Assembly (NCBI GenBank): GCA_010093745.1
Contig: MU005968.1
Span: forward strand, 62,001-126,000
DNA: 64,000 nt
DNA from: Piedraia hortae CBS 480.64
Lineage: Eukaryota
Reading direction: 5' to 3'
Below are positions 1 through 3,780 of this stretch, piece after piece (within the stretch, counting starts at the first letter, position 1; each line of letters starts with the position of its first letter). Below the pieces are notes generated by a model. It made no database searches. It had not been told where the DNA came from and saw only the letters and a list, made by a program, of their open reading frames with translations. Both the position numbers and the translations under genes were made by a program.

Positions 1-937
1 TAAATCGCTAGGGCAATCTTTAAGAAAAGCTAGAGGATTTAACCACATTGGGAAGGTTGTTAGCCCATTTCGGTAAAGTACCGCGGAAGGGCCCGTACAC
101 GCTATCTGATTGGCTGTCTGATGTTCCTCTCTCGCACCCTCTGGAGCAGGGTTGTTGAGAAAGTGAATAGGAATAAATAATGGGGCTTCCAAGCACAACC
201 TCAGGCATCAAGGGCCGGCCCGATCCTGTAAATTACTGAAAATTGCTTGTTGAAAAAGTCTGTTTGGATTACATCAGCAATTCCGCGTAATTTCAGATCG
301 GATCGATCTGTGATGCCTGAAGAAGATGCCTGAATGCCCCACTATTTATTCCTATTTACTTTCTTAACAGCCCTGCTCTGGAGACTCTCATGCAGGCTCT
401 CCATTGGAGAGCCTGCATATTCCAACCCTCTCAACCTCAGGCTTAATTCTTCACGAACAGAAGGAAGTATACTTCGAATCCTAGATACCTACCGGGCGAA
501 CAGGTAGTTGATCAATTGAACGAGCAACACAGCCTGTGGTACGCGCGGATGTGGGAGGAGAGCTAGATTGCCAGTCCCGAGCAAGCATAAACATCTGTAG
601 CTTCTGCGGGCGCAATGTACGGGAGGCATTGGCACAGCTACGAACCGAAACGCAAGCCTTGCGTGAAGAATCGCTCTTGGAGCCCCTACATTGACCTCGA
701 GGGCCAGAACAGGCCGACGATACCTGAGACGTCGGATTTTTGGTATCCCGGAGCCTATCTGCTTGCCTTGTGGGTGAATTTACGTGATTCAGGCTCGAAT
801 TTAGGCACTGGCTACAGCAACTGACAAAAAGGTGAAGATGGTACGGGTCATTCCGTGACACCATTCCAGAATTAGTTAGCGACTTTTTAAATGCCGTTAG
901 ATTCCAAAGCTTTTTCTAAAGATTACCCTAGAGATCT
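1..937. mobile_element. Nested foldback / MITE-like element (probably continues left of the window)
   Basis: The reverse complement of 1-98 aligns with 841-937 (gtacgg...agcttttt.taaagatt.ccctag). Inner arms 139-210 and 311-383 (ccccactatttattcctatt.actttct.aac) and ~220-250 and ~275-301 also pair. No credible ORF. Confidence 0.65.
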
Positions 938-1040
938 CGGGTTTGCAGAATCGGTCAATTCCTGCAGGGACGCAAGGGCTGGCAGACGGCTTAGGGTTAG
1001 GATCGCGACTCATTCGCATGAACAACATCACCTGGAGCCA

Positions 1041-1373
1041 ATGTCGTCCACGCCGCTCCACCAGCTTTGGGAGGCCTCAGCCAACCAGCCCTTCCAGCCT
1101 ACAGTTGGCAAATCTGCCCAGTTTTCTGTTGCCTTTACACTCCTCGCCCTAGGCTTTCTACTGACAAGTCTATTCGGCCTGAGTAAGAGCAGTCGTACCG
1201 TTACAAGACGACAGTGCTGACGGACAGACCTTTCGCTCAAAAACGTTCCCCTCTATGGAATCCCCGCTTCTCTCGCTATTGGGTAATGAAACTCTTATGG
1301 TATGTTAACAGGGCTGACAGACGTTAGATTTGGTGCAGTTTATATGATTTGCGCCGTGGGCGTGTACGTGTAG
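1041..1373 (+). CDS. OST5: Oligosaccharyltransferase subunit OST5, 80 aa; exons 1041-1182, 1228-1282, 1328-1373
   Basis: Two 45-nt GT..GCTGAC..AG introns give MSSTPLHQLW...TVGKSAQFSVAFTLL...GIPASLAIGFGAVYMICAVGVYV*. It has two hydrophobic segments and the family-typical GVYV C-terminus. Confidence 0.88.
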
Positions 1374-1384
1374 AAGACAATACA

Positions 1385-2338
1385 ATGGCCCTATTTTCCG
1401 CCGTGTTTCCATCTGCACGCCAGCTGCTCGTACTTCTCCGTTGCATCTCCTTTGCGAAGAATGTGCAGGTTCACATTTCTGCCCAGGGCCTGCGGTTCAG
1501 CAGTTCTGACGGGAGCGTGATGGAGGCGTCGATATTCATCGACAGTTCGTTATTTACAAGCTACAACTACCAGGCTGCTGCTTCATCGCAAGATCCGCCA
1601 GTGTTTGAGATAAATACATTATCGCTCATGGAGACGCTGAATATATTCAGTCTGTCTGATCCGAGTGCGACGAAGCGGGCGACTTACGACATAATGTCTG
1701 CCCAGCGAATGAGTCGCCAGGTCAATGCATTTTCTACGCAATCTGCGGGCGTCATAGGCGTGTGCACATTCAGCTACGACGGTGAAGGGCGGCCGCTGCG
1801 GCTTCAGATGGCTGAGACGGGCGTCAGCACCACGTGCGATCTGACGACGTATGAAGCTGCTACTACAGAGGAGATTCCTTTTGACCGCAACGCTTTGGCC
1901 CTTAAGACGATTATGCGAGCGTCGGATTTATTGGAGGCTGTGAATGAACTGACGTCAATGAATCCCCCAAGCGTAACCATCGTTGGCTCGCCTTTTTCGA
2001 GCTCCGAGCCTGATTTATCCGTTTCAGCTACGGGCGCGTATGGCTCGGCGACGGTGACGTTCAGGTCGGATAACAGTGTGTCTGAGACGCCATGTCTTGA
2101 GATGTTCTACTGTCCTACGGGCGCGCGCGCGAGTTTCAGCGCCAACTTAATCAAGGCGTCGCAGCGGGCCATGGCGTCTGCATTGAAAGCCTCGTTGAGA
2201 CTGGATGTGGAGGGCGTGCTCAGTCTGCAGTTTCTCCTTCAGCTCGACCCTGGGTCTAGTGAGAACGGAGAGACTGTTACTTTCGTTGACTTTCGTCTTG
2301 TTCCACTAGTTGAAGACGAGGATGTGGGGGAGTTATAG
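1385..2338 (+). CDS. rad1: 9-1-1 checkpoint clamp subunit, Rad1/Rec1/Rad17 family
   Basis: MALFSAV..ARQL..LLRCISF...V.IS..GLRF N-terminus, TTCDLTTYE, and C-terminal ASLR.D..GVLSLQFL / FVDFRLVP motifs. First ATG is at 1385; intronless. Confidence 0.85.
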   Translation: MALFSAVFPSARQLLVLLRCISFAKNVQVHISAQGLRFSSSDGSVMEASIFIDSSLFTSYNYQAAASSQDPPVFEINTLSLMETLNIFSLSDPSATKRATYDIMSAQRMSRQVNAFSTQSAGVIGVCTFSYDGEGRPLRLQMAETGVSTTCDLTTYEAATTEEIPFDRNALALKTIMRASDLLEAVNELTSMNPPSVTIVGSPFSSSEPDLSVSATGAYGSATVTFRSDNSVSETPCLEMFYCPTGARASFSANLIKASQRAMASALKASLRLDVEGVLSLQFLLQLDPGSSENGETVTFVDFRLVPLVEDEDVGEL

Positions 2339-2490
2339 CGTGAGCCAATGTACAATCATCAAGACGTTGAGAAGCCGTCAATGGCATTCCTGTGACAGTT
2401 TGACGTGGACCCACTTCCCCGGATTCCATCCACACGGCTCCACCCGCCGCGACGTCAAACGTCAACAACATCCGCCAGGAGGCGACCAGC

Positions 2491-3780
2491 ATGGCGACCG
2501 CCGCGACCGCTAACGGACACCCAACCCTCTCGCTCGGCATCAAGCGGTCCAACTCCGCGACCCCCTCTCCCACTCGCTCCCCCAAACGCGCGCGCACCTC
2601 AGAGCCCCCAATCAAAACCCCTCACCCCCAAACCGTCCCCTTCCCCGAGAAACCCGCCGTTCTCGAAGAACGCACGGGCGAAATAACCTTCCAAGTCGTC
2701 AACAACGACAACACTCCCCATTCCATCATGATCTTATCAGGCCTCAAAACAATCTTCCAAAAACAACTGCCCAAGATGCCAAAAGAGTACATCGCCCGCC
2801 TCGTCTACGATCGTACCCATCTCAGCATGGCGATCGTAAAACGCCCTCCATCTGGAAGCCACGCGGCATCCTCCTCCCTCCCTGGCGAGGTCGTGGGGGG
2901 GATAACCTACCGCCCCTTCCGCGGCCGGGGTTTCGCTGAGATCGTCTTCTGCGCAATCAGCAGCGACCAGCAAGTCAAAGGCTACGGCGCGCATCTAATG
3001 AGCCATCTAAAGGACTACGTCCGCTCTACCTCCGACGTAATGCACTTCCTCACCTACGCGGACAACTACGCGATCGGCTACTTCAAAAAGCAAGGTTTCA
3101 CGAAAGAAATCACCCTCGACAGAAAGAAATGGATGGGTTATATCAAAGACTACGAGGGTGGGACGATTATGCAGTGCTCTATGCTTCCTATCGTCCGCTA
3201 TTTAGAAGTTGGGAGGATGCTCCTGAAGCAGAAAGCAGCCGTCTACGCGAAGATGCGCGCCGTCAGCAAAAGTCACGAACTCCACCCCCCTCCAGATGCT
3301 TGGCGACGGGTGAAACCCGGCCTCCCCCTTCCGGTCATAGACCCCATCTCCATCCCCGCCATCAAGGCCACAGGCTGGAGCAAAGAAATGGATACCCTCG
3401 CACGCCAACCCCGCCGGAGTCCATCCCATTCCCTTCTCGTTGGCCTCTTAAGCGCCCTACAAACCTGCTCGGCCGCGTGGCCTTTCCTCCAGCCCGTGAA
3501 CGCGGATGAGGTGCATGATTACTATGATGTCATTAAACAACCCATGGATCTGGCGACCATGGAGACCAAGCTGGAGAAGGATCAGTATGAGGTTGTGGAG
3601 GATTTTATTAGGGATGTGTTGCTTATTGTGAGAAATTGTAGGAAATATAATGCGGAAACTACGACTTATGCGAAAGCGGCAGTTAAGTTGGAGAAGGAGT
3701 TGTGGAGGAGGGTTAGAGAAGTGCCCGAGTGGTTGTATATTGAACAGGAGGGATTTGAGGGGACGGGGAGAGAGGGGTAG
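2491..3780 (+). CDS. GCN5: Histone acetyltransferase GCN5 (GNAT + bromodomain)
   Basis: [62 protein letters not shown]; bromodomain AWPF.QPV....V.DYY.VIK.PMDL. Confidence 0.96.

Follow-up and report, generated by a model that had tools for sequence, protein, structure and literature searches.

OST5 and rad1 of Piedraia hortae lie 11 nucleotides apart in one continuous transcribed stretch: a candidate conserved dicistronic unit

Conserved bicistronic loci have been described in green algae, namely OST4_FAM32A, TOM22_SDHAF3 and REX1S_REX1B (PMC11892635; PMC7896298), and leaky scanning yields the second open reading frame (ORF) of OST4_FAM32A (PMC11892635). Among filamentous fungi, glpks3-glnrps7 of Glarea lozoyensis is transcribed as a dicistronic mRNA with a spacer of 26 base pairs (bp) (PMC4471562), and the 9-bp IGG6 spacer, derived from Glarea, allows downstream translation in yeasts and in Aspergillus nidulans (PMC10352335). 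The Drosophila Rad1 (CG3240) transcript carries a conserved upstream ORF of 179 amino acids (aa) (PMC2276209), and read-through polycistronic transcripts have been reported from Agaricomycetes (PMC4503453), Fusarium graminearum (10.1101/2021.11.08.467853) and Zymoseptoria tritici (10.1101/2023.04.26.537486). Here we describe OST5 and rad1 of the dothideomycete Piedraia hortae CBS 480.64, two same-strand genes separated by 11 nucleotides (nt) in a 64,000-nt stretch of DNA (contig MU005968.1, positions 62,001 to 126,000, forward strand), which we call the window and whose numbering is used throughout. In the literature searched, the OST5-rad1 pair was not found, the sole co-mention being a description in an orthology database; supplementary lists of the fungal Iso-Seq preprints lay outside this search.

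Two public sequencing runs contain this DNA: X1, a DNA run from which the assembly may derive, and X2, which comes from another sample and another study. In X2, a single uninterrupted stretch of spliced and polyadenylated transcription takes in both OST5 and rad1. Both proteins probably come from one shared message, and the reading that we favor, with a probability of roughly 0.55, is that OST5 and rad1 form a conserved dicistronic unit in which Rad1 is reached by leaky scanning, with or without re-initiation. The elements of the locus are as follows, UTR standing for untranslated region.

1041 to 1182, + strand: OST5 exon 1, codons 1-47 plus 1 base, with the ATG at 1041 (Pfam PF05251).
1183 to 1227, + strand: OST5 intron 1, 45 nt, GT..AG, spliced out in RNA (the X2 contig shows the joint 1182>1228, which the DNA run X1 lacks).
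1228 to 1282, + strand: OST5 exon 2, 55 nt, containing an out-of-frame ATG at 1255.
1283 to 1327, + strand: OST5 intron 2, 45 nt, GT..AG, with a branch-like GCTGAC at 1313-1318 and the acceptor TAG at 1325-1327, spliced out in RNA.
1328 to 1373, + strand: OST5 exon 3, coding for FGAVYMICAVGVYV, with the in-frame Met72 ATG at 1344 and the stop TAG at 1371-1373.
1374 to 1384, + strand: inter-ORF spacer AAGACAATACA, 11 nt.
1385 to 2338, + strand: rad1 ORF, encoding the 9-1-1 checkpoint clamp subunit, 317 aa, intronless, with the stop at 2336-2338 (Pfam PF02144).
2339 to 2386, + strand: rad1 3' UTR, 48 nt, up to the poly(A) addition site.

X2 was taken to be RNA because its contig over this locus is spliced and A-tailed, the run label itself being only a guess. 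Contigs of both runs (from de Bruijn assembly, each with a single depth value) were placed on window positions 700 to 2700. A single X2 contig of 1229 nt (record 5, mean word depth 170.9) spans 1089 to 2386 on the + strand in three segments, 1089-1182, 1228-1281 and 1327-2386, the second joint being aligned as 1281>1327 (cut +1). Both OST5 introns are precisely absent from it, with GT..AG borders, and are retained in X1. The contig continues unbroken across the 11-nt spacer and the entire rad1 ORF, and it carries 21 non-templated A at position 2386, where the genome has TTCC. On either side, 834-1088 and 2387-2524 are without cover in the X2 contigs. The run also provides an internal control. 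The same-strand neighbor downstream encodes a Gcn5-type acetyltransferase with a bromodomain and has its ATG at 2491, 152 nt past the Rad1 stop. X2 keeps this gene and rad1 apart, with the poly(A) end at 2386, a gap, and a new contig from 2525; since these two neighbors stay separate at a distance of 152 nt, merging of neighbors is not automatic in this run.

Both genes were identified by profile searches. Exon 1 of OST5 alone scored 31.4 bits with the Ost5/TMEM258 profile PF05251, above the curated cut-off of 27.4 (E = 2.3e-7), and the spliced product of 80 aa contains the hydrophobic stretches FSVAFTLLALGFLLTSLFGL and IPASLAIGFGAVYMICAVGVYV, read from the translation, in line with the two helices expected of Ost5/TMEM258. 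Rad1 matched the Rad1/Rec1/Rad17 profile PF02144 over its full length (201 bits, E = 2.3e-59, positions 2-256 of 257); because the match begins at profile position 2, we take 1385 to be the true start of rad1. Among 157 Rad1 homologs, the best named ones (Meristemomyces, Oleoguttula and Pseudocercospora) are about 60% identical. Near its N terminus the window Rad1 deviates at nearly invariant residues, reading AVFPSARQ where its relatives have AVSSSARQ. A preliminary description of this DNA, made from the sequence alone, had delimited OST5 and rad1, including GCTGAC at 1313-1318 and the TAG acceptor at 1327, and all of its coordinates were correct. The 11 nt that it had counted between the OST5 stop and the Rad1 ATG on the same strand were likewise verified on the sequence. 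We also share its view that such a gap, of the size looked for in a dicistron, would leave no space for a poly(A) site plus a promoter; OST5 mRNAs would therefore have to enter or cross rad1.

The pairing extends well beyond this genome. A metagenome scan with the Rad1 alignment recovered 27 loci, 52-60% identical, five of which begin inside rad1. OST5 lies immediately upstream of rad1 and on the same strand in 21 of the 22 loci that have upstream DNA. The exception, L012, is cut 263 nt upstream of rad1. After removal of duplicates (L006 and L007, which equal L005 over the region, and L016, which equals L015), 18 loci were modeled together with the window, giving a set of 19. OST5 is 80 aa long in 18 of these and 79 aa in L017. 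Its two introns, of 45-64 nt, occupy the same positions in all but the intronless L025, so that 17 of the 19 loci combine an 80-aa OST5 with both introns, and L017 has both introns as well. The last 14 OST5 residues are identical in 18/19 loci, with two differences in L025. This divergent relative (L025:97-339) also has the longest spacer and the longest ORF between the two genes (see below).

From the OST5 stop to the Rad1 ATG, the spacers measure 11 (window), 60, 74, 81-85 (ten loci), 169, 193, 229 (two loci), 239 and 384 nt (L025). That of the window is thus the shortest of the 19, and those of its relatives range from 60 to 384 nt. The preliminary description had proposed synteny and spacer length in related fungi as a check, and the outcome is that the pairing is kept while the distance varies. 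As judged from these comparisons, the 11-nt spacing is not due to chance but is the extreme of a linkage kept in every relative examined. In the Cladosporium-like clade (L004, L005, L008, L010, L011 and L018-L021), the spacers of 60-85 nt are C/A-rich and ATG-free, and an ACGAA..(T/C)ACGA motif is common to 9 of the 11 aligned Cladosporium-like spacers.

The long spacers of other relatives are filled by a third ORF, which is present in L001, L003, L009, L012, L015 (and the identical L016) and L025. Its positions are as follows.

L001, 1973-2197: middle ORF, A-TGA overlap with the OST5 stop, ending 18 nt before the Rad1 ATG.
L003, 796-1020: middle ORF, A-TGA overlap with the OST5 stop, ending 8 nt before the Rad1 ATG.
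L009, 969-1193: middle ORF, A-TGA overlap with the OST5 stop, ending 8 nt before the Rad1 ATG.
L012, 25-180 (approximately): middle ORF, visible at the contig edge, within the 263 nt of upstream DNA.
L015, 2818-2976: middle ORF, starting 4 nt past the OST5 stop and ending 6 nt before the Rad1 ATG.
L025, 332-673: middle ORF, 8-nt overlap with OST5, ending 50 nt before the Rad1 ATG.

In L001, L003, L009, L015/L016 and L025 the product is 52-113 aa long (113 aa in L025); it features the motif GYRxFHPVTSTLVILG and a single hydrophobic helix. Searching its profile against 1.84 billion representatives gave 14 clusters of 44-131 aa with E values up to 0.001; one of these, P0135 (131 aa), is a read-through by the ORF caller from OST5 introns. 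None of the ten clusters looked up has a name or an NCBI accession. Ten of 18 aligned members start with MN, which fits the ATGA overlap. The middle ORF matched no Pfam family (best E = 0.14), a word-index search found no homolog of near length, matches in the Atlas were all under 0.9, and no copy was found in the 64-kb window (best E = 0.82). Taken together, the middle ORF is a candidate for a new family of membrane microproteins, with a predicted length of 44-113 aa. Three ORFs joined by 4- to 8-base overlaps or 4- to 50-base gaps ill fit separate promoters, and for this reason their packing is the strongest, albeit indirect, argument that expression in this group may be polycistronic.

A Rad1 tree of 36 rows (L020, L021, L024 and L025 being excluded as too short) places the window as a long branch within an unresolved Mycosphaerellales group (branch length 0.76, compared with a median of 0.15). 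The middle ORF occurs in three subgroups of Mycosphaerellales, one with Saxophila, one with Meristemomyces and Oleoguttula, and one with Friedmanniomyces, and the Cladosporium clade is without it. The window has probably lost the middle ORF, as its placement among these relatives suggests, and such a loss would explain its extreme spacer. One could go further and regard the whole arrangement as a recent accident, in which rad1, once the middle ORF had been deleted, came to rely on read-through from OST5 and is poorly expressed, the layout having no regulatory meaning here. The shortest spacer of the set, the presence of the middle ORF in relatives of the same order and the long Rad1 branch are all compatible with this. 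However, the rad1 ORF is intact, still scores 201 bits against Pfam and has abundant poly(A)+ RNA cover, and the whole Cladosporium-like clade stably maintains short spacers, of 60-85 nt, that contain no middle ORF. We consider such an accident quite unlikely.

The start codons of the two genes differ in strength. OST5 starts in a weak context (gagccaATGt, with C at -3 and T at +4) and Rad1 in a strong one (aatacaATGg, with A at -3 and G at +4). This difference is maintained across the 19 loci. At the OST5 AUG, position -3 is a pyrimidine and position +4 a T in 19/19, in spite of 13 different upstream hexamers; at the Rad1 AUG, 17 loci show a purine at -3 and 18 a G at +4. For comparison, 9 of 14 ORFs in the window and 16 of 19 in the loci of relatives have a purine at -3, a background that was taken from the first ATG of long ORFs and is noisy because introns hide true starts. 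The combination of a weak OST5 and a strong Rad1 context fits the signature of leaky scanning.

According to the dicistronic reading, transcription would begin upstream of the OST5 ATG and both OST5 introns would be spliced out. The RNA would then cross the 11-nt spacer and the whole of rad1 without a 3' end, to be polyadenylated at 2386. OST5 would be translated from its own weak AUG, while those ribosomes that bypass this AUG and two further weak ones would initiate at the strong Rad1 AUG. Re-initiation, either after short internal ORFs or after OST5 itself, might assist, and induced re-initiation mediated by 80S ribosomes has been described (PMC11952965). The expected outcome would be much OST5 and little Rad1. 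Here, we infer that both ORFs sit on single molecules, that these begin upstream of OST5 and that they serve as template for Rad1.

Several observations weigh against this reading. The X2 contig begins at 1089, 48 nt inside OST5, and leaves the OST5 ATG uncovered. De Bruijn contigs merge overlapping transcripts, so that the X2 contig is no proof of a single molecule. Such assemblers may also clip short poly(A) branches. Artefactual merging of overlapping transcripts is documented in the Z. tritici Iso-Seq study (10.1101/2023.04.26.537486), and the published fungal polycistronic RNAs are mostly rare read-through of genes that also have transcripts of their own (10.1101/2023.04.26.537486; 10.1101/2021.11.08.467853; PMC4503453). 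On the side of translation, two AUGs, at 1255 and 1344, lie between the OST5 and Rad1 starts in the spliced RNA, both with T at -3. The former is out of frame and opens 15 codons that end at 1347, 37 nt short of the Rad1 AUG; the latter is the invariant Met72 and opens 9 codons that end at the OST5 stop. AUGs are not depleted in the window (2 seen, 2.26 expected), and across the 19 loci their depletion between the two starts is only modest, with 46 AUGs compared to 61.7 ± 6.8 in dinucleotide shuffles; 1% of the shuffles were at or below 46, the loci being related to one another. AUG density is 0.65 per 100 nt upstream of Rad1 versus 1.49 within rad1. Finally, re-initiation past an ORF of 80 codons is usually poor (PMC11892635).

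The claim of the preliminary description that Rad1 is made from a shared transcript thus stands in part. It is borne out by continuous, spliced, poly(A)+ cover, conserved pairing and the start contexts, and it meets its limit in what a contig can say about single molecules. As to the 5' end, the Gcn5 contig in X2 begins 34 nt inside the Gcn5 ORF, and because of this similar shortfall 1089 is best read as the usual loss of 5' sequence rather than as a start site.

The main rival reading is that the two genes are nested transcription units. A start site for rad1 would lie inside an exon or intron of OST5, OST5 RNAs would end at a weak poly(A) site within the rad1 ORF or read through it, the contig would merge both, and the linkage would be kept by the internal promoter. 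Contigs cannot tell overlapping RNAs apart, and the 5' end at 1089 falls in OST5 exon 1, although the like shortfall of the Gcn5 contig makes it poor evidence of a start site. The genome is compact (152 nt from the Rad1 stop to the Gcn5 ATG, including a 3' UTR of 48 nt), so promoters can be tiny, and tandem genes with overlapping 3' and 5' UTRs are common in the related Z. tritici (10.1101/2023.04.26.537486). The Cladosporium-like spacers, C/A-rich and with their shared ACGAA..ACGA motif, look like leaders. On the other hand, nested units require a poly(A) site in the rad1 coding region that nevertheless spares the rad1 RNAs. They also leave unexplained why OST5 starts in a weak context in 19/19 loci and Rad1 in a strong one, and why three ORFs should be packed with ATGA overlaps and gaps of 6-18 nt.

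We found no excess of synonymous conservation in the OST5 exons: at invariant four-fold codons, third-base entropy averaged 1.67 bits in exon 2 and 1.21 bits in exon 3, that is, these sites vary freely. No conserved embedded DNA element is visible there, which is a weak argument, as fungal promoters need not be conserved. On balance we regard nested units as a serious possibility, yet a doubtful one.

Public proteomes provide a further view of the linkage. Residues 1-80 of a fused model from Dothistroma were searched against proteins of 226-720 aa. This query retrieved 15 proteins, every one of which has an Ost5 as well as a Rad1 domain. They come from Dothideomycetes (Dothistroma and Curvularia), Leotiomycetes (Botrytis porri), Lecanoromycetes (Xanthomendoza) and Eurotiomycetes (eleven species of Aspergillus). 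With one more from Cladosporium, there are at least 16 public fusions (P0067, P0078 and P0121-P0134). The search depends on shared words, and the non-appearance of other classes carries no meaning. Ten fused models were read. In seven of them (P0067, P0078, P0122, P0124, P0125, P0129 and P0131) a linker of 4-39 aa connects the very end of OST5 with the beginning of Rad1, and the other three (P0121, P0132 and P0134) exit OST5 a few residues early or enter Rad1 past its start. The Xanthomendoza model omits the Rad1 N terminus. The fused models are probably artefacts of gene predictors confronted with very short intergenic space. What they document is an adjacency: OST5 and rad1 stand side by side on the same strand in four classes of Pezizomycotina, as far as can be read from these protein models.

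A bolder version of the dicistronic reading can be built on this distribution. OST5 and rad1 may constitute an ancient and obligate polycistronic housekeeping unit of Pezizomycotina, with rad1 nowhere having a promoter of its own. OST5, in Mycosphaerellales the microprotein of 44-113 aa with the motif FHPVTSTLVIL, and Rad1 would then be encoded on one capped mRNA and translated by graded leaky scanning, through start codons that are weak, weak and strong in turn. We put this forward tentatively, as a possibility that falls short of even odds.

The preliminary description had also raised the possibility that the locus is splice-switched, an alternative acceptor in OST5 intron 2 replacing TAG 1327 and giving an OST5(1-65)-Rad1 protein. 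The site in question is the following.

1336 to 1338, + strand: alternative acceptor CAG, proposed earlier, unused in the RNA contig and not conserved.

Its use would indeed yield an open frame of 398 aa, and that part of the claim is correct. However, the probability of an open fusion frame is about 0.16 (a frame match of 1/3 times about 0.49 for no stop in 15 codons), and the frame is therefore within chance. The RNA does not lend support either: the 1282>1339 fusion junction is absent from the X2 contigs, where 1282/1328 is the only junction, with the reservation that contigs drop rare variants, and TAG 1327 is the first usable AG past the branch site. The CAG arises from the choice of an alanine codon (GCA followed by G), and of 18 distinct OST5 sequences 3 have an AG at the equivalent place. 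Followed back from rad1 to that site, the Rad1 frame stays open in at most 3 of the 19 loci, and the frame offset between OST5 and rad1 takes all three values across loci. As neither acceptor nor frame is conserved, as the offset varies and as the RNA junction is 1282/1328, we regard the fusion as a chance feature. A fusion protein would, moreover, lose the nearly invariant OST5 C terminus and would tether a nuclear clamp subunit to a membrane helix of the endoplasmic reticulum (ER). The fused models in public annotations might seem to speak for it, but they join at differing points, through linkers of 4-39 aa, and look like predictor artefacts. Overall, a functional splice switch is very improbable. 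Stop-codon read-through was considered as another route to a fusion and rejected, the Rad1 ATG lying 14 nt past the first base of the OST5 stop and thus out of frame.

Some features of the surroundings are worth recording. No tRNA and no Rfam family was found in positions 1 to 3000 of the window. The 5' flank of OST5 (1-1029, especially 703-787) contains inverted repeats, and the 85-nt stretch 703-787 has a second copy, diverged by 8 mismatches, which is present in DNA-run as well as RNA-run contigs. Downstream, after the 48-nt rad1 3' UTR, about 100 nt remain for the promoter and leader of Gcn5.

Natural fungal mRNAs for two proteins have been described at a few secondary-metabolism loci and as rare read-through. 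If the dicistronic reading is true, a housekeeping pair found across four classes, including Aspergillus, Botrytis, Zymoseptoria relatives and lichen fungi, would offer tractable models for how ribosomes gain access to a second ORF. It would also account for a recurrent annotation error, namely fused models, and gene calling in other genomes may miss OST5 or the middle mini-ORF. The dosage of Rad1 in these fungi would be set translationally, behind an unrelated subunit of ER glycosylation, and the pair would add a candidate new family of membrane microproteins.

Of the systems described so far, the green-algal bicistrons come closest. Like OST5-rad1, they have a small membrane protein as ORF 1 (there, too, an oligosaccharyltransferase subunit), a short inter-ORF distance (14 nt in REX1), a weak ORF 1 context and long-range conservation. 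They differ in kingdom and in partner genes, and they were established by long reads and in vivo Kozak mutagenesis, whereas the present case is made from a contig and sequence signatures. AUG depletion is weak at OST5-rad1. The Glarea dicistron resembles OST5-rad1 in that it belongs to a filamentous ascomycete and consists of two ORFs that lie about 10-26 nt apart, with no intervening poly(A) signal. However, it comprises lineage-specific genes of secondary metabolism for which re-initiation was proposed, whereas OST5 and rad1 are unrelated housekeeping genes paired across four classes.

In Drosophila, too, a conserved ORF that looks translated precedes Rad1, on the same annotated transcript. 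That ORF of 179 aa was traced within Drosophila only, and the report on it does not describe it as Ost5; the Drosophila arrangement is of independent origin. The fungal read-through RNAs share with OST5-rad1 a dense genome and one RNA across same-strand neighbors, but the genes concerned are also transcribed alone and have room to be, whereas the OST5-rad1 gap is 11 nt and the pairing is conserved far beyond one class. Overall, the arrangement is unusual for fungi, but its kind is already known from the algal bicistrons, the Glarea operons and the upstream ORF of Drosophila Rad1.

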